Virus record (IMG/VR): IMGVR_UViG_2698536476_000007
Direction: 5' to 3' (one strand)
Length of the DNA: 26,878 nt
Origin: a virus
Lineage: Duplodnaviria > Heunggongvirae > Uroviricota > Caudoviricetes
The position numbers and the translations under genes were made by a program. The notes beneath the pieces are model-generated. The model had not been told where the DNA came from and made no database searches. It was given only the letters and a program-made list of their open reading frames with translations. Shown here piece after piece: positions 1,481 to 7,647 of this stretch. Each line of letters starts with the position of its first letter. Position 1 is the first letter of the stretch.

Positions 1481-2476
1481 GTGACCGTGAGAGCACTACT
1501 GACCCCTGAAATTGCCCCGCGTATGGGGATCGTATTGTTCAGGCCAGGTTCAGAGCTGATGCCCCTGTTTATGCAGGGGCGTGTCCTGCTGGAGCCAGAG
1601 CCGGAACGTTATTCATCTTTCGCCAGTGGTGCCGTTCCGGCGGCAACACAACCGCTGGCGGATGATCCTGCCGTTCGGACCGTGTTCCGCAATGAGGCAG
1701 TGATCCGTCGTGCTGGTGGCGTGGAATGTCATGAAAGCTGGTTACTTCGTGAAAAGGGCTGTCAGTGGCCTCATTCTGACTGGCACAGCGAGAACATGAC
1801 CACAATGCGGCACGCTCCGGGAGCAATTCGTCTGTGCTGGCACTGCGATAACCAGCTGCGTGACCAGTTCACGGAACGGCTGGAATCAATGGCAACGGAT
1901 AACTGTGCCCGCTGGGTGTTGTCTGTCGTGCGTCGGGATCTCGGTTTTGATGACAGTCACGTTGTGACAATGCCGGAACTGTGCTGGTGGCTGGTTCGTA
2001 ATGATCTGGCGGATGCCTTACCGGAAAGTGCAGCCCGTAAGGCACTGAGATTACCGAAGCCTGTTGTGCCATCTGTCACCCGGGAAAGTGACCTTGTGCC
2101 TTCGGTTCCTGCCACCAGCATCATCCAGGATAAGGCGAAAAAGGTGCTGGCGCTGAAAGTGGATCCGGAGTCGCCGGAGTCTTTTATGTTACGCCCAAAA
2201 CGTCGCCGCTGGGTTAATGAAAAGTACACGCGCTGGGTTAAGACGCAGCCGTGTGCATGTTGTGGAAAGCCTGCTGATGATCCCCACCATCTGATAGGCC
2301 ACGGTCAGGGGGGAATGGGTACAAAAGCGCATGATCTCTTTGTGTTGCCTTTGTGCAGAAAGCATCACGACGAGCTGCATGCGGATACCGTGGCATTTGA
2401 AGAGAAGTATGGCTCCCAGCTGGAGTTGATATTTCGTTTTATCGATCGTGCGCTGGCAATTGGTGTGCTGGCCTGA
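1481..2476 (+). CDS. DUF968-family phage protein (YdfU-like) with C-terminal HNH-like Cys/His cluster
   Basis: C-terminal 'CACCGKPADDPHHLIGHG...LCRKHHDELH' is the conserved DUF968 Cys/His motif found in nin-region proteins of lambdoid prophages. GTG start; an alternative GTG at 1487 has a better-spaced GAGG. Confidence 0.6.
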   Translation: MTVRALLTPEIAPRMGIVLFRPGSELMPLFMQGRVLLEPEPERYSSFASGAVPAATQPLADDPAVRTVFRNEAVIRRAGGVECHESWLLREKGCQWPHSDWHSENMTTMRHAPGAIRLCWHCDNQLRDQFTERLESMATDNCARWVLSVVRRDLGFDDSHVVTMPELCWWLVRNDLADALPESAARKALRLPKPVVPSVTRESDLVPSVPATSIIQDKAKKVLALKVDPESPESFMLRPKRRRWVNEKYTRWVKTQPCACCGKPADDPHHLIGHGQGGMGTKAHDLFVLPLCRKHHDELHADTVAFEEKYGSQLELIFRFIDRALAIGVLA

Positions 2477-2493: not shown

Positions 2494-2850
2494 ATGCGTG
2501 ATATGTATGAAGTAATGGATCGTTGGGGAGCTTGGGCTGCTTCAGACAATAGCGGAGTGGACTGGCAGCCGATAGCGGCTGGTTTCAAGGGACTTTTACC
2601 TCATGGCAAAAAGTCACGGATTCAGTGTGATGATGACGAAGGCATCATGATAGACAGTTGTGTGGCTCGGTTGAGAAGGTATAAACCAGAGGAATATGAG
2701 CTCATCATCGCCCACTTTGTTATCGGTATCTCATTACGCACTATTGCGAAGAAGAGAAAATGCTCTGATGGCACAATTAGGAAGGAACTGCAAACTGCAA
2801 TGGGGTTTGTTGACGGCTGTTTAGCAATGTTAGCTTATAGTATGGCATAA
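2494..2850 (+). CDS. Q: Late-gene antitermination protein Q (phage 82/21-type)
   Basis: 'VMDRWGAWAA...WQPIAAGFKGLLP...SRIQCDDDEG' matches the 82-type Q family (LERWGAWAA...IAAGFKGL...CCDDD). Sits immediately upstream of the lysis cassette. GGAG at 2483-2486 precedes ATG 2494. Confidence 0.75.
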   Translation: MRDMYEVMDRWGAWAASDNSGVDWQPIAAGFKGLLPHGKKSRIQCDDDEGIMIDSCVARLRRYKPEEYELIIAHFVIGISLRTIAKKRKCSDGTIRKELQTAMGFVDGCLAMLAYSMA

Positions 2851-4044
2851 AAAATAAAATAGATTTACTGCCGATTTTTCAAAAAAGACTGGGAACTGTT
2901 TATATCCAACGTAAATAAGGCCTCCATAAAACATGGCTGATGCGAGATATTTAACAGTTCTCATCCTTTTTTTAGCTTTATCAATCAAACCTGTAATGCT
3001 ACTCTTAATACTATCTGCATTATCTTTGATTTCTTTATTTTCTTCAAACTTTAAATACTTATCGAAAGCGGACTCCACTCGAGAACGTAAGTTGTCGAAT
3101 GTTTCATTGAATATCTCAATAGAAATGTAATTGACTTTTTTTATCATCCAAAGTCCTGCGATAATCAATATTGCTTCGGTTGTTTCATTAGCCTTCACTA
3201 AGCCACCAGCAGCTATTAATGCACCGGGAATAGTCAATGCTTTTGTCTGATTAGATGATATGAATTCGTTAATTTTACTCGTGAACTCAAGATTTTTCTC
3301 ATCGAGTTCGTTAAGAATTTTATTTACAGAAAACCTCTTTGTGTAAATCTCATATAGTTCATCATATTTTTTCCTGACGAGTTCAGTAGAGTTAAGCAAG
3401 TCAAAGAAATTGAACGTACCATTTGCTTTAAATACTTCGTTTATGGCTGAGCGTATAACGAGCTTGCGCTCGCTTTTGTGTAAATCATTGATTTTTATTG
3501 TGTCGAGAAGCTCCTTTATAATTTCATATTTAAGAGACGAGTTCGATAAGCGATTAATCTCGCTATATTGTAAAAAATGCGTGAGTTCGACTGTATAACT
3601 TTTGTCTTCATTGGTGAAAAATAAGACAGAGCAGTCACTGTTATGATGATCAGCAATTAATGAAAGGATATCTTTCCACATAAAGAAAATATGGATTTTT
3701 TCGATGCTTTCATTCTTAGAAGTAGGGAGTATTAACGGCGTTCCGATGATATAATTTTTCGGAAGAGCGTTTTGGGTGTTTACTCTAGACCAAAAAGACT
3801 CAACATTCTCATAAATTATAGCGTCATCCCAAGATGAAGCTTGGCGATCTAGCCAAATTTCATTATTTTCGATGCAGGTTGTTGCCTTTTTATAACCTAT
3901 AGATTGTAACAGTCTAATTATTTCAGAACTATTTACAATAACAATGCTTTCTTCAAGACTTATGACAGTGTAGTAGCCCTCAACTCTGCTTGAGGCTCCG
4001 TTAATAATCTGCGCTAATCTTGATAAGTCATCAGCAATTGTCAT
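2830..4044 (-). CDS. Hypothetical protein, 404 aa; soluble N-domain plus C-terminal hydrophobic helices; downstream gene of the AT-rich cargo operon (candidate effector)
   Basis: Uninterrupted 1.2 kb ORF in very AT-rich DNA, where long ORFs are unlikely by chance. Start ATG lies 2 nt after the upstream gene's TAA (translational coupling). Hydrophobic stretches LTIPGALIAAGGLV, AILIIAGLWMI and YLASAMFYGGLIYVGY near the C-terminus. No family recognised. Confidence 0.8.
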   Translation of the reverse strand: MTIADDLSRLAQIINGASSRVEGYYTVISLEESIVIVNSSEIIRLLQSIGYKKATTCIENNEIWLDRQASSWDDAIIYENVESFWSRVNTQNALPKNYIIGTPLILPTSKNESIEKIHIFFMWKDILSLIADHHNSDCSVLFFTNEDKSYTVELTHFLQYSEINRLSNSSLKYEIIKELLDTIKINDLHKSERKLVIRSAINEVFKANGTFNFFDLLNSTELVRKKYDELYEIYTKRFSVNKILNELDEKNLEFTSKINEFISSNQTKALTIPGALIAAGGLVKANETTEAILIIAGLWMIKKVNYISIEIFNETFDNLRSRVESAFDKYLKFEENKEIKDNADSIKSSITGLIDKAKKRMRTVKYLASAMFYGGLIYVGYKQFPVFFEKSAVNLFYFLCHTIS

Positions 4045-4046
4045 TA

Positions 4047-5222
4047 TTAGCTGTCTCTATATCTTTTGAGTTCATCATAATTTGCCTGACTCAATTTTAT
4101 CACAATTTCGCATTTGTTGTCAGTGAGAATTACAGGCTTATTTGACTTTTCGTCTCCAATAGCTCCACGCATTATTTTCAACTTAAAATTATTGTCGTTA
4201 TCTGCCACTTCAATTGTAAGCGCGCTTTCAGCTGCTTTAGGAGTTGGTTCAAATTGAGGGTCAATCTGGAAACCATTAAGATTAACAAAATCGACAAACG
4301 TTCCCTTACATTTGTGTGAATCAGTCAGGCATGAGTCAATTATTTTTGAAATATCCTCTATCTTAACGGACTTATTTCCGTGTTTATCTTTTGATTTTTT
4401 TTCCAGTAAGGATTTAACTTCATTGTCAATAGTATCACGCAGTACACGACCGAGTGAGTTTTTACTAGCAAAAATATCTATAGCACTGAATAATTGCTGA
4501 ATGCTTCTTTTATTGTCCGAATCATGTCGGCAACCTAATGAGTCTTTGAAAAAATCGCTTTTAGATTTACCTTGCAAGAAATGTACATATGAGTCACCCT
4601 TGTTTTCTGGATAACTGGCTTCGAATAAAGTTAAATCGAACATCGCAGCCTGCCGTAAGGCATCGGTATTAATTGGATTTAATCTTGTTGGGGTCAACTT
4701 ATCCGAATCAAAGTCATAGGCGCTTTGTTTATCAACCATTACGATTAGAAGTTTCCCCAAATCCTCTGGTTCGGTAGACTTATAGTGGATGAAAACAACG
4801 CTCCCCCCCTGAAGTTGGGCAACTCTCGATTCGTTATTAGCATTATGTTTAAGCTTCTCTATTATAGCTCTAGATAAATCAATGAATTCATTATTTTTAT
4901 TAATGTATTTTTTTAGGATCGTAGGAATGGATGAAGGGTTGTGATCTGAGTCTAGGAAGTTATGAAATTTGTTTTTTCGGCTAAATTTTTTCTCAATTCT
5001 GGTTATGAATTCAGATGTGACTTCATTTTTTAGATCCCAAACTTCACCTAATCGATAATCAAATGCTCTTGAATCATTTTTTTCAAGATTTGCTGTTACA
5101 GCACCAATAGGAAAGTACGATTGTTTGCCCAGCACTACAACATGAGGCGTGGCACCGCATTTATCGCAAGCTACAGTTGGGTCGTCAAGAACATTGCCAC
5201 ATTCTAAACAAGTTATATCCAT
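4047..5222 (-). CDS. Hypothetical protein, 391 aa; N-terminal CxxC-x10-CxxC zinc ribbon plus NdpA/YejK-like region; upstream gene of the cargo operon (candidate sensor/DNA binder)
   Basis: Long ORF in AT-rich DNA. N-terminus CLECGNVLDDPTVACDKCG. Central 'GGSVVFIHY...LLIVMV...NPINTDALRQAAMFDLTLFE...YVHFLQGKSKSDFF' parallels the NdpA motif series GGFVLFCHY...LLVAVL...DLTEWE...YLTFLKGRVGRKVADFF, as recalled from memory. Confidence 0.8.
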   Translation of the reverse strand: MDITCLECGNVLDDPTVACDKCGATPHVVVLGKQSYFPIGAVTANLEKNDSRAFDYRLGEVWDLKNEVTSEFITRIEKKFSRKNKFHNFLDSDHNPSSIPTILKKYINKNNEFIDLSRAIIEKLKHNANNESRVAQLQGGSVVFIHYKSTEPEDLGKLLIVMVDKQSAYDFDSDKLTPTRLNPINTDALRQAAMFDLTLFEASYPENKGDSYVHFLQGKSKSDFFKDSLGCRHDSDNKRSIQQLFSAIDIFASKNSLGRVLRDTIDNEVKSLLEKKSKDKHGNKSVKIEDISKIIDSCLTDSHKCKGTFVDFVNLNGFQIDPQFEPTPKAAESALTIEVADNDNNFKLKIMRGAIGDEKSNKPVILTDNKCEIVIKLSQANYDELKRYRDS

Positions 5223-5228
5223 TATATA

Positions 5229-5265
5229 TCCCGAATTATAAGAATGAATTTTTATGTGGCTGAAA
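5229..5265 (-). promoter_or_regulatory. Candidate promoter for the cargo operon (perfect TATAAT -10 on the - strand at 5235-5240)
   Basis: The - strand reads ...TTCAGCCACATAAAAATTCATTCT-TATAAT-TCGGGATATATA-ATG. Perfect -10 hexamer in an AT-rich, UP-like context; the -35 is weak (TTCAGC) and the leader is very short. Confidence 0.3.
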
Positions 5266-5341
5266 ATTCTATCAAAACACTAACGCGTACGCAAAAAGTA
5301 TTGTATTGTGTTAAGAGTGGTTACTTCGCCACACAGCTTAA

Positions 5342-5368
5342 ACCCGCCGTCGAGCGGGTTTTGTCGTT
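5342..5368 (+). terminator. Intrinsic terminator hairpin (ACCCGC-cgtcga-GCGGGT + TTTGTCGTTT), possibly tR'-like for a short Q-dependent leader RNA
   Basis: Perfect 6-bp GC-rich stem followed by a T-rich tract on the + strand, between the Q-proximal region and the holin gene. Confidence 0.5.
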
Positions 5369-5513
5369 TCTGGGCCTGGGGATTCGTTGGGCCTAGTCTA
5401 TCCCGCAGTTATCCATTGGCTCGGCTTCTTTGACGTTTCCGCTTCTGATTTGCGGTACATGATGTTTCCTCAATTTGCACCTGCTGTATCAGCGAGGTGA
5501 GAGATAACTACAA

Positions 5514-5840
5514 ATGCCTCATAACCCAAATACTTGGCTGGAGTTGGTCCAGAGCTGGTGGCGTGGAGACACACCGCTGGGCGCAGTGATTATGTCGATC
5601 GTTATGGCTGGCTTGCGCATTGCCTATTTTGGCGGTGGTGGTGGCTGGAAGAGAAAAACGCTCGAGATTTTGCTCTGTGGCGCTCTGACGCTGACCTTTG
5701 CATCCGCGCTTGAGTATGTCGGATGGCCTAAATCGCTTTCTGTTGCCATTGGTGGTGGCGTTGGGTTGATCGGTGTCGATGCTATTCGTGGGGCTGCAAT
5801 GAGAGTAATCGGTAACAAGTTTGGTGGCTCTAAGGAGTAA
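5514..5840 (+). CDS. S: Holin (lambda S-like, class I)
   Basis: 108 aa with hydrophobic helices; 'GAVIMSIVMAGLRIAYFGGGGGWKRKTLEILLCGALTL' resembles lambda S. Directly upstream of the R endolysin. Confidence 0.85.
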   Translation: MPHNPNTWLELVQSWWRGDTPLGAVIMSIVMAGLRIAYFGGGGGWKRKTLEILLCGALTLTFASALEYVGWPKSLSVAIGGGVGLIGVDAIRGAAMRVIGNKFGGSKE

Positions 5841-5843
5841 TTT

Positions 5844-6320
5844 ATGCAGGTACTAAATTCCCAGCGTAAAGCTTTCCTGGATATGGTGGCATGGTCAGAA
5901 GGAACGGATAACGGGCGACAACCGACACGTAACCACGGTTATGACGTTATTGTCGGTGGCGAACTCTTCACTGATTACTCCGATCACCCTCGCAAACTTG
6001 TCACGCTAAACCCGAAACTCAAATCAACAGCTGCAGGCCGTTATCAACTTCTTTCACGTTGGTGGGATGCTTACCGCAAGCAGCTTGGGCTGAAAGACTT
6101 CTCTCCCAGAAGCCAGGACTCAGTGGCATTACAGCAGATTAAAGAGCGTGGCGCTTTACCGATGATTGACCGCGGCGATATTCGTCAGGCAATCGACCGT
6201 TGCAGCAATATCTGGGCTTCACTGCCGGGCGCTGGTTATGGTCAGTTCGAGCATAAGGCTGACAGCCTGATTGCAAAATTCAAAGAAGCGGGCGGAACGG
6301 TCAGAGAGATTGAGGTATGA
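5844..6320 (+). CDS. R: Endolysin, lytic transglycosylase (lambda R)
   Basis: 158 aa, near-identical to lambda R across its length ([79 protein letters not shown]...). Confidence 0.95.
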
Positions 6321-6754
6321 GCAGAGTCACCGCGATTATCTCCGCTCTGGTTATCTGCATCATCGTCTGCCTGTCATGGGCTGTTAATCATTACCGTGAT
6401 AACGCCATGACCTACAAAGAGCAGCGCGATAAAGCCGCATCCATCATCGCTGATATGCAGAAGCGTCAACGTGATGTAGCAGAACTCGACGCCAGATACA
6501 CAAAGGAGCTTGCTGATGCTAACGCGACTATCGAAAGTCTCCGTGCTGATGTTTCTGCTGGTCGTAAGCGCCTGCAAGTCGCCGCCACCTGTGCAAAGTC
6601 AACGACCGGAGCCAGCAGCATGGGCGATGGAGAAAGCCCAAGACTTACAGCAGATGCTGAACTCAATTATTACCGTCTCAGAAGTGGAATCAACAGGATA
6701 ACCGCGCAGGTTAACTACCTGCAGGAATACATCAGGACGCAATGCCTGAAATGA
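6317..6754 (+). CDS. Rz: i-spanin Rz
   Basis: N-terminus [30 protein letters not shown] is essentially identical to lambda Rz; C-terminus 'QCLK'. Confidence 0.9.
6516..6701 (+). CDS. Rz1: o-spanin Rz1 (lipoprotein), embedded in the +1 frame of Rz
   Basis: AAGGAG RBS at 6503-6508 precedes ATG 6516. Signal peptide [20 protein letters not shown] with lipobox Cys, then a proline-rich stretch ([13 protein letters not shown]) as in lambda Rz1. Confidence 0.75.
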
Positions 6755-6789: not shown

Positions 6790-7065
6790 ATGACTAAGCT
6801 TTATCACCGCATCTCAGCTTTTCTCTCTGGGTGCTGGGCGTTTATCACGTCTATTTCGTTCGTCATCTTTAGTTTCGGTAGCACAGCATGCTCGCTTAGT
6901 CGGGGTCTGTGGCGTGCTATTTCAGCACTAGCGCCGAAATTTTTACCTGAAAAGGTTGTTTGGCGAATTGTAGAGCGAATGTGTAGTGAGAGCGTTCGCG
7001 AGAAGATTAACGTATTTGGACGTCATCCTCGAAATACAGGCGCATTGTGCAGTTCGTTACTGTAG
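6790..7065 (+). CDS. Hypothetical small protein with hydrophobic N-terminal region (moron position downstream of Rz)
   Basis: CAGGAG RBS 8 nt upstream of the ATG; hydrophobic segment AFITSISFVIFSF; followed by a hairpin at 7074-7100. No family recognised. Confidence 0.4.
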   Translation: MTKLYHRISAFLSGCWAFITSISFVIFSFGSTACSLSRGLWRAISALAPKFLPEKVVWRIVERMCSESVREKINVFGRHPRNTGALCSSLL

Positions 7066-7073
7066 TCATTACA

Positions 7074-7100
7074 AAGCCCATCTTTGGGTTTGGTTTGTAA
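7074..7100 (+). terminator. Hairpin with trailing T-rich tract (possible weak terminator) downstream of the 6790-7065 ORF
   Basis: AAGCCCA-tctt-TGGGTTT stem (one G-T wobble) followed by GGTTTGTAATTT. Confidence 0.3.
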
Positions 7101-7183
7101 TTTCGCTGCTGCAATAATCACCAGAAATATGGCATTGTAATTGGTGGTCATATGTCATACCCATCAATTACAAAGGAGCAGAC

Positions 7184-7435
7184 ATGTCATCTACAAAATT
7201 AGTTAAAACTATCCTTTTCCATGGAGATAATAAATATGAAGTTTATGCAACCTCCGAGTACGCTGACGTAGATAGAATCATTCATTACAAGTTACGCTCA
7301 TGTAAAAACACAGATGGTTCAGATGGCAAGTCTGAATCTATATGGGTTGTATATAATCCTGCTGTTCAACTACCGGATGATCTGAACTACAAAAAAGTTA
7401 GCAACATAGCTCCTTATCTTGAAAAGTTACAATAA
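7184..7435 (+). CDS. Hypothetical 83-aa protein; AT-rich moron with its own RBS and terminator
   Basis: AGGAG RBS 6 nt upstream of the ATG; AT-rich codon usage unlike flanking phage genes; intrinsic terminator immediately downstream. No family recognised. Confidence 0.55.
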   Translation: MSSTKLVKTILFHGDNKYEVYATSEYADVDRIIHYKLRSCKNTDGSDGKSESIWVVYNPAVQLPDDLNYKKVSNIAPYLEKLQ

Positions 7436-7457
7436 ACTTCCTTTTCCACATGCTAAA

Positions 7458-7483
7458 AGCCTCGTATTCGCGGGGCTTTTTAT
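7458..7483 (+). terminator. Intrinsic terminator after the 7184-7435 moron
   Basis: GCCTCG-tattcg-CGGGGC stem (one G-T wobble) followed by TTTTTATT. Confidence 0.55.
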
Positions 7484-7493
7484 TGTCATTACA

Positions 7494-7519
7494 AAAGCCA
7501 CTCCCTACAGAGTGGCTTT
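7494..7519. terminator. Perfect 10-bp hairpin (AAGCCACTC-cctaca-GAGTGGCTT); possible opposite-strand or bidirectional terminator partner
   Basis: Perfect inverted repeat; on the - strand the stem is followed by TTTTGTAATG. Confidence 0.3.
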
Positions 7520-7647
7520 GATAATGGTTTATACCCTACACGGGATAACTTAACTGATATCCCTTTTAACGGATAAACGGAGCCAACAATGGCAGAGAAT
7601 GTCGGCATTATGGCAGTTAAATTTGGATAAATCGGAGATTAGTACAT

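Follow-up and report, generated by a model that had tools for sequence, protein, structure and literature searches.

The 26,878-nt stretch of viral DNA analysed here (IMG/VR record IMGVR_UViG_2698536476_000007; hereafter the window, to which all coordinates refer) carries a pair of adjacent AT-rich genes on its minus strand at 2830..5222. Comparison with curated protein families and with published sequences identifies this insert, with a probability that we put at roughly 85%, as the DS-1 anti-phage system, a horizontally acquired cargo operon that has already been published and tested; the pair is a rediscovery rather than a new module. This estimate covers the identity and the defence function of the pair only, and its mechanism is graded separately. 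An earlier sequence-only reading of the same DNA had proposed an undescribed anti-phage or abortive-infection module at this position. Its functional claim agrees with published plating data for an identical clone. The word 'undescribed' has to be given up: both proteins are identical to those of the named and validated DS-1 system (NF053868/NF053869 and the WP_ accessions given below), and the homology to an already named defence system that the reading had itself set against its proposal is present.

The operon has the following features, given with the evidence for each (AF2, AlphaFold2 model; Zn, zinc; aa, amino acids).

2817..5283, minus strand: AT-rich cargo island of ~2.45 kb with the DS-1 operon and its promoter region (G+C content; end of similarity to the sibling prophage ACN002)
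5223..5283, minus strand: candidate promoter region of the operon, with TATAAT at 5240..5235 and TTGATA-16-AAAAAT at 5275..5248 (consensus scans only, not above chance)
4047..5222, minus strand: DS-1A, nucleoid-associated anti-phage protein of 391 aa with a Zn ribbon and the YejK/NA37 fold (NF053868, Pfam NA37, AF2, Foldseek)
5157..5210, minus strand: codons for C5, C8, C19 and C22 of the N-terminal Zn ribbon (direct sequence reading)
4095..5033, minus strand: NA37/YejK domain, residues 64-376 (Pfam PF04245; hhalign against E. coli YejK)
4545..4571, minus strand: G218-KSKSDFF-K226 motif, aligned with the pore-lining DNA-binding loop R173/R176/K177 of YejK (alignments)
2830..4044, minus strand: DS-1B, anti-phage protein of 404 aa and putative membrane effector (NF053869, PHROG 5023, AF2)
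3550..4044, minus strand: mildly acidic N-terminal alpha/beta domain of DS-1B, residues 1-165 (AF2 secondary structure)
3136..3372, minus strand: most conserved core of DS-1B, residues 225-303, a juxtamembrane helix plus hydrophobic hairpin (41-sequence alignment)
2833..2949, minus strand: C-terminal hydrophobic helices of DS-1B, residues 366-404 (AF2; family hydropathy)

The list of open reading frames (ORFs) contains both genes on the minus strand, 4047..5222 (391 aa) and 2830..4044 (404 aa), each with an ATG start. Their junction reads TAA-TA-ATG, so that the 2-nt spacing described in the sequence-only reading is correct. The compositional island seen there by eye was confirmed by a windowed calculation: G+C content is 34.9% in 2830..5222 versus 53.8% in the remainder of the window, with sliding values of 33-38% across ~2800-5200 and of 50-59% on either side. 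The promoter signal to which the reading had pointed fared less well. The minus strand does carry a perfect TATAAT, at 5240..5235, 12 nt ahead of the start codon of the 391-aa gene, but it carries little weight, because 6 of the 11 copies of this motif in the window fall inside the AT-rich island and because promoter-like sites are not enriched (12, versus 9.4 +/- 2.9 in shuffled sequences). We therefore do not count the motif, frequent as it is in DNA as AT-rich as this, towards a promoter.

Both proteins exceed the curated cut-offs of NCBIfam equivalog models. The 391-aa protein, DS-1A, matches NF053868 (DS1_1_antiphage, nucleoid-associated anti-phage protein) at 451.4 bits against a cut-off of 330, its residues 10-377 covering profile positions 3-369 of 369. 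The 404-aa protein, DS-1B, matches NF053869 (DS1_2_antiphage) at 375.2 bits against a cut-off of 315 over the full profile, and also matches PHROG 5023. At the level of individual sequences, DS-1A is identical to WP_000355468.1 in 391/391 residues, and DS-1B is identical to WP_000150292.1 across all 399 residues printed in Table S8 (PMC13092281). Furthermore, the DNA of E. coli 2015C-3163 (NZ_CP027219.1) is 100% identical over 2700-5500 of the window, and RefSeq assigns these same two accessions to the 2015C-3163 genes, whose coordinates and lengths are those of the window pair. Newer RefSeq genomes label the pair 'nucleoid-associated anti-phage protein' and 'anti-phage protein'.

DS-1 is DefensePredictor system 1, clone D390 (DeWeirdt, Mahoney & Laub, bioRxiv January 2025, Science 2026; PMC13092281). 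The D390 transcription unit occupies 220602..222994 of NZ_RRVY01000002.1 and encodes WP_000355468.1 (391 aa) and WP_000150292.1 (404 aa) within 2393 bp (PMC13092281), which is exactly the length of 2830..5222. Seen as systems, D390 and the window pair do not differ: they share proteins, unit length, gene order and spacing. They may come from different host strains or contigs, and in the window the prophage context between Q and the holin gene is visible. In the published screen, units were cloned together with the region predicted to hold their native promoter, on a low-copy plasmid in strain MG1655, and 24 phages were tried (PMC13092281). The values of -log10 efficiency of plating (EOP) listed for D390 in Table S7 are 7.6 for Bas1, 2.7 for Bas26, 1.7 for Bas3, 1.7 for T3, 1.0 for T5 and 0.9 for T7; on SECphi27 the clone caused smaller plaques only, and D390 is flagged as replicated (PMC13092281). 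These seven phages are the only ones with D390 rows in that table, which has none for D390 with T4 or RB69. The main text of the same paper brings up DS-1 only to illustrate that 'a YejK nucleoid-associated domain' had newly been linked to defence, and gives no mechanism.

Neither protein was matched by PADLOC-DB 2.0 (2023). This null result does not indicate novelty, because that database predates DS-1, and older tools would call the pair novel since PADLOC 2023 has no DS-1 model. As a discovery the pair carries no weight, DS-1 having been predicted, cloned, shown to defend, named and built into NCBI annotation models beforehand. The case does have value as a calibration: raw sequence alone was enough for a reader to single out a true defence system, by its base composition, the arrangement of its genes and its location.

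Architecture of DS-1A and DS-1B

The 391-aa protein, for which the sequence-only reading had recognised no family, is a member of NA37/YejK. Pfam NA37 (PF04245) matches its residues 64-376 at 84.5 bits against a gathering score of 24.6 (E 1.2e-23). The AF2 model of DS-1A (predicted local distance difference test score, pLDDT, 86.9; predicted template modelling score, pTM, 0.83) has the structure of E. coli YejK, 9be2, as its sole significant fold match in the PDB (Foldseek, E 4.8e-14). The two proteins are also related by phmmer (E 1.2e-9) and by hhalign of the DS-1A family profile with E. coli YejK (probability 97.9, 285 columns across both YejK domains, ~20% identity). DS-1A falls below the cut-off of the YejK equivalog model NF001557 (81.4 versus 341 bits). 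Judged by these scores, DS-1A is distinct from YejK and forms a paralogous branch of NA37. The two share the same two-domain fold; in contrast to YejK, whose gene in E. coli is a separate, stand-alone core gene, DS-1A has a Zn ribbon, resides in mobile DNA and is encoded in an operon with a membrane protein.

YejK is a dimeric, sequence-nonspecific DNA clamp with a basic pore that is said to modulate topoisomerase IV and gyrase, and DNA binding is impaired in its R173/R176/K177 and R276/R280/K284 mutants (PMC11229321). The first of these clusters aligns with G218-KSKSDFFK226 of DS-1A, where K219, K221 and K226 are on offer, so that the loop is partly kept. Within the DS-1A family, G218, S220 and F225 are invariant and K226 is nearly so. 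Binding of DNA by DS-1A thus follows plausibly from the modelled fold, although it is not guaranteed.

The Zn ribbon that had been noticed in this protein is real at the level of its residues, C5-x2-C8-x10-C19-x2-C22. Pfam zinc-ribbon matches are weak (E 0.07-0.28), model confidence is low at the ribbon (pLDDT 65-70), and HHpred on DS-1A has been reported to give a NinF-like match at 86% (PMC13092281). The ~35-residue N-terminal extension of DS-1A (window 5120-5222) is absent from YejK. A ribbon occurs in 21 of 43 aligned DS-1A relatives, namely those from Enterobacterales plus two metagenome sequences, and the Pseudoalteromonas homologue likewise has one. The ribbon-less relatives in this alignment, from Pseudomonas and others, have a strongly acidic, low-complexity N-terminal tail instead, ribbon and tail being mutually exclusive. 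At two loci with more distant gene pairs, the DS-1A homologue lacks any N-terminal extension. A further variant is found in E. coli O103 WL1467 (NZ_CP193491.1), where the annotated DS-1A gene falls short by ~60 codons and the region exceeds that of the window by 1 nt, which points to a frameshift that has cost this strain the Zn ribbon and the first part of the NA37 domain.

DS-1B has no significant PDB relative, by sequence or by fold, and no Pfam family was found for it. No significant structural similarity was detected to alpha-pore-forming toxins of the ClyA/AhlB/MakA type or to CorA-type channels. A SLATT-like or holin-like identity was considered and set aside, with no Pfam support at E < 1. 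The AF2 model (pLDDT 84.9) begins with an alpha/beta domain (residues 1-165), continues with a helical region (166-265) and ends in long helices that run to the C-terminus. This corresponds to a predicted cytoplasmic part of ~265 residues, after which come a helix and hydrophobic hairpin, then an amphipathic helix and, at the C-terminus, a hydrophobic helix. The alpha/beta domain has a net charge of -9 (family median -7) and a pI of ~4.5-5.2.

Three hydrophobic segments of DS-1B (268-284, 289-303 and 366-383) are all helical in the AF2 model, and the hydropathy of each is kept across the family. The C-terminal membrane helices claimed for the 404-aa protein are therefore present as helical segments, of moderate hydropathy. 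In a 41-sequence alignment, most of the invariant or nearly invariant columns lie within residues 225-303. This core consists of the juxtamembrane helix KKYDELYEIYTKRFSVNK...TSKINE, then a Gly/Ala-rich hairpin, QTKALTIPGALIAAGGLVK, a loop and AILIIAGLWMI. The tail beyond the last hydrophobic helix varies across the family.

The gene pair in other genomes

The arrangement of homologues of DS-1A (A) and DS-1B (B) was followed at 18 loci. Four of these were located by exact look-up of divergent homologues (in Serratia, Pseudoalteromonas, Pseudoteredinibacter and P. aeruginosa), twelve by scanning a single genome for each species, and two, both distant members, by a full profile search. In 18/18 loci, from Gammaproteobacteria and metagenomes, A lies immediately upstream of B on the same strand. 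Where gene calls exist, the two genes overlap or are at most 18 nt apart; elsewhere, stop-to-stop ORFs overlap or are at most 9 nt apart. A is still present at two of these loci where B scores merely E ~1e-18 to 1e-25 against the family profile, and one Photorhabdus copy of the pair is degraded. The divergent pairs from Pseudomonas, Pseudoalteromonas and Serratia score above both equivalog cut-offs. Conserved synteny outside this prophage, on which the sequence-only reading had made its proposal depend, is thus found at all of these loci, and the A-B pair is a unit.

The DS-1B family is larger by profile search than by word-seeded search, reaching 779 clusters (50% identity) at E <= 1e-3, with 69 at E <= 1e-30. 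All named relatives are gammaproteobacterial, bar one 2.6-kb contig of a metagenome-assembled genome labelled Lactobacillales. Known defence genes stand beside the pair in at least two of the 18 loci: in Pseudoteredinibacter it adjoins AbiE and the Septu-like PDC-M01, and in Serratia it adjoins BstA. The pair is also found next to integrases. In P. aeruginosa its immediate neighbour is a filamentous prophage of the Pf type, with Zot and DUF2523 genes; this is a mobile context of another kind than the lambdoid slot used in E. coli. Although DS-1B has strong PHROG matches, tblastn against 50,697 isolated phage genomes (INPHARED) gave no match, and plasmid records with a match number only six. 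Because of these two results, DS-1 seems to travel in prophages and islands.

These distributions also bear on whether the pair defends its natural hosts at all. AT-rich, horizontally acquired DNA is commonly silenced by H-NS in E. coli, and the operon could be silenced cargo of this kind, or a prophage accessory that acts on chromatin or on lysis timing, with the published phenotype an artefact of expression from a plasmid. The chance-level promoter signal agrees with this view, and the position beside the lysis cassette could suggest a lysis-related role. We regard it as very improbable. The clone that defended was low-copy, carried its native upstream region and gave a replicated result, and the pair also occurs outside prophage late regions, beside integrases and known defence genes. 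In addition, at least 80% of the region is present in 106 of 5426 complete E. coli genomes, and many genomes carry the two ORFs in intact and identical form.

A possible release-and-bind mechanism

The closest described architecture to that of DS-1 belongs to PANGU, which joins a YejK-like protein, PagA, to an effector, PagB (Li et al., April 2026 preprint, 10.64898/2026.04.06.716658). In type I PANGU, PagA binds long DNA non-specifically, leaves the nucleoid once T4 degrades the chromosome, and then binds the acidic DNA-mimic domain of a toxSAS effector, which it activates; PagA that is deficient in DNA binding is toxic together with PagB (10.64898/2026.04.06.716658). Type II PANGU combines a YejK-like nucleoid-associated protein (NAP), Pag2A, with a transmembrane (TM) effector, Pag2B, whose N-terminal domain is acidic and whose TM region is C-terminal (10.64898/2026.04.06.716658). 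For an E. coli example of type II, the same preprint reports that both genes are needed, that neither is toxic alone and that infection dynamics look abortive. It also reports that a NAP-GFP fusion leaves the nucleoid on infection and that the isolated N-terminal domain of the effector binds the NAP with a dissociation constant of 19 nM. The preprint gives the activation of this effector as unknown and does not cite DS-1.

DS-1 has this type II architecture, and for that reason we take a PANGU-like model as the best available. A YejK-like gene comes first and a partner of ~400 aa with C-terminal membrane helices second. The first protein belongs to NA37 and has the YejK fold. The partner gene, which type II PANGU places within 40 bp, follows after 2 nt, and its three hydrophobic helices lie within residues 268-383 (AF2 and hydropathy). 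The N-terminal domain of the partner is net acidic in both systems, though modestly so in DS-1B, and both systems are found in E. coli and near defence genes. The match also fits the logic to which the sequence-only reading had pointed, a DNA-binding-type protein coupled to a membrane protein as sensor and effector. That logic has been proposed for nucleoid-protein-based abortive infection; the identity of the system itself was already published.

By analogy with type II PANGU, DS-1A dimers would ride on chromosomal DNA in the uninfected cell and would come free once the host chromosome is degraded or displaced by an infecting phage. The released DS-1A would then bind the N-terminal domain of membrane-anchored DS-1B, switching the conserved hairpin of the latter into a membrane-damaging state, and the damage would stop the infected cell before progeny are made, an abortive infection. 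We rate this release-and-bind model at slightly less than even odds. Phage T7 degrades host DNA. T1 and T5 do so as well (10.64898/2026.04.06.716658), and because all three do, the phages restricted by DS-1 fit a trigger that consists in the loss of host DNA. The type I system is a parallel of the same kind, with a YejK-like clamp, Pag1A, as sensor and a released NAP that binds an acidic partner domain, as would be the case for DS-1. Its effector is, in contrast, a soluble alarmone synthetase (the GRel toxSAS Pag1B) rather than a membrane protein, and shows no similarity to DS-1B.

Several observations weigh against the release-and-bind model. DNA binding by DS-1A is not assured, because one of the two basic clusters of YejK is only partly kept; the other, R276/R280/K284, aligns with P328/E332/T336 of DS-1A and is not conserved. 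The N-terminal domain of DS-1B is only mildly acidic (-9/165 aa) and is no obvious DNA mimic, and the hydrophobic segments, assigned to the membrane from hydropathy and the AF2 model, are short or of moderate hydropathy. The PANGU model assigns no role to the Zn ribbon, which is absent from half of the DS-1A family and is not mentioned in the preprint. The mechanism of DS-1 was not dissected in the study that described the system (PMC13092281). Finally, the phage spectra are close to opposite: the type II system PANGU-Ecu blocks T4 and not T1 or T5, whereas DS-1 acts on T5, T3, T7 and the T1-like Bas1 and Bas3, with no recorded effect on T4 or RB69, in a literature comparison between studies whose expression conditions differ. 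This mismatch weakens the view that DS-1 is the same system as PANGU-Ecu, not the view that it works like it. Type II PANGU has also been described as spanning phyla, whereas the named DS-1B relatives are confined as given above.

A bolder proposal is possible and less probable than the model above. In this proposal DS-1 would be a mechanistically distinct branch of nucleoid-protein immunity, in which a YejK-like clamp with a Zn ribbon or, in other lineages, an acidic tail senses a cue of T7-, T5- and T1-type phages rather than of T4 and gates a membrane effector whose conserved helix and hairpin have no solved structural relative. The slot between Q and the late leader would also be an exchangeable site for defence cargo. 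Starting points for work on how DS-1 acts are the strict A-B coupling, the DS-1B core motif, the partial conservation of YejK residues and the exact boundaries of the cargo.

The plating data admit a different kind of explanation, in which no cell need die. DS-1A might clamp phage DNA as it comes in or replicates, or perturb the action of topoisomerases on it, and DS-1B might merely tether or position the clamp at the inner membrane, the site of phage DNA entry, so that the phage is interfered with directly and the cell survives. The complete block of Bas1 (EOP 10^-7.6) resembles exclusion more than leaky abortive infection; the affected phages T5, T7 and the T1-like isolates bring in linear DNA, and T4 is not among them. 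The nonspecific clamping by YejK and its reported effect on topoisomerase IV and gyrase (PMC11229321) would suit this role, and the Zn ribbon might contribute a further contact with nucleic acid or protein. Even so, direct interference is unlikely. For most other restricted phages the effect is only 10- to 500-fold and plaques are small, a pattern typical of abortive systems, and type II PANGU, whose architecture matches, acts by abortive infection. Moreover, the most conserved part of the system is the helix and hairpin of DS-1B, which is expected of an effector and not of a passive anchor.

The conservation pattern could be taken to argue that the roles are reversed, with DS-1B sensing an event at the membrane or in the periplasm, such as DNA injection or the action of a holin or spanin, and DS-1A, once released or activated, acting as an effector whose clamping and condensing of DNA would halt replication and transcription. 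Across the family, conservation is higher in A than in B (for example, 56% versus 40-42%, and 42% versus 31-33%), as is often so for effectors, and the C-terminal tails of DS-1B are highly variable, one homologue being annotated as SH3-domain-containing, as might be expected of a surface that meets diverse phage cues. This arrangement appears still less probable than direct interference. The conserved core of DS-1B is the membrane hairpin rather than the variable tail, DS-1A has no recognisable catalytic domain (Pfam, NCBIfam and Foldseek against the PDB), and in type I PANGU the NAP is the demonstrated sensor and activator and the partner the toxin.

The prophage slot between Q and the lysis genes

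The host element is an E. coli lambdoid/e14-like prophage. The remainder of the window comprises the prophage late region, whose terminase is of P27 type, whose head is of HK97 type and whose contractile tail is e14/Mu-like. The insert lies where the sequence-only reading had placed it, with Q on the left and the lysis genes on the right.

2494..2850, plus strand: antiterminator Q family gene, convergent with DS-1B, its last 21 nt overlapping the DS-1B 3' end
5284..5513, plus strand: conserved late-region leader upstream of the holin gene, with a hairpin and T-run at 5340..5370 (conserved in ACN002, partly in DLP12)
5514..5840: lambda-family holin
5844..6320: GH24 endolysin
6317..6754: Rz-like lysis protein

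The boundaries of the cargo can be drawn by comparison with the sibling prophage ACN002 (NZ_CP007491.1), which has a near-identical Q gene. Similarity to ACN002 ends at ~2816, eleven codons before the end of Q, and returns at ~5265-5284, which sets the cargo at ~2817..5283. The last ~11 codons of Q and its stop differ from those of the sibling and derive from the cargo side. No terminator-like site was found between Q and DS-1B in their convergent overlap (2817-2850).

Other members of this prophage group carry unrelated cargo at the same position. In ACN002 the slot holds three unrelated minus-strand genes, encoding proteins of 204 aa, 114 aa and 249 aa, the last of the TIGR04255 family. These have no PADLOC 2023 match and no NCBIfam defence name, and given their position they constitute a candidate uncharacterised cargo or defence cassette. 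DLP12 has the porin gene nmpC in this slot, also on the minus strand. Like DS-1, the nmpC/lc porin genes (DLP12/PA-2) and the stx genes of Stx phages occupy the interval between Q and the lysis genes and are of foreign base composition, and DS-1 shares the reversed orientation of nmpC. The cargo in those cases is a porin or a toxin, in contrast to the defence function of DS-1.

To the right of the insert, the hairpin and T-run at 5340..5370 has a predicted RNA fold of -13.3 kcal/mol (z -2.3) and a terminator-like match. It lies in a segment of ~80 nt, 5284-5370, that is ~90% conserved in roughly half of complete E. coli genomes and is found ~120 nt upstream of essD in DLP12 of K-12. This segment is probably part of a Q-dependent late leader or terminator. 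Rfam searches found no RNA family anywhere in the window, and the late promoter pR' was not identifiable by motif; only the leader and hairpin could be recognised.

The location of the late promoter determines whether late transcripts cross DS-1. The target site of Q must travel with Q, and the only non-coding DNA shared with siblings that have a near-identical Q lies to the right of the insert, at 5284..5513, where the promoter is therefore most likely to be found. The Q-dependent late promoter thus probably lies beyond the cargo, on its downstream side, where it would stand back to back with the promoter region of DS-1, and late transcripts probably do not cross DS-1. The description of the operon as antisense to the late operon accordingly holds for its orientation and probably not for transcripts.

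Two further observations concern neighbouring parts of the prophage. A second AT-rich islet, 6800-7600 (G+C 37-44%), lies between the Rz-like gene and an HNH endonuclease gene. It contains an ORF at 7184..7435 (plus strand) for a hypothetical protein of 83 aa (WP_000099430.1) with no NCBIfam match, at the position where ACN002 has a GrlR-family regulator, and the islet looks like another exchangeable moron slot. In the otherwise identical prophage of 2015C-3163, the DUF968 gene that shortly precedes Q is split by an IS3-family element; in the window, this gene (1481..2476) is intact.

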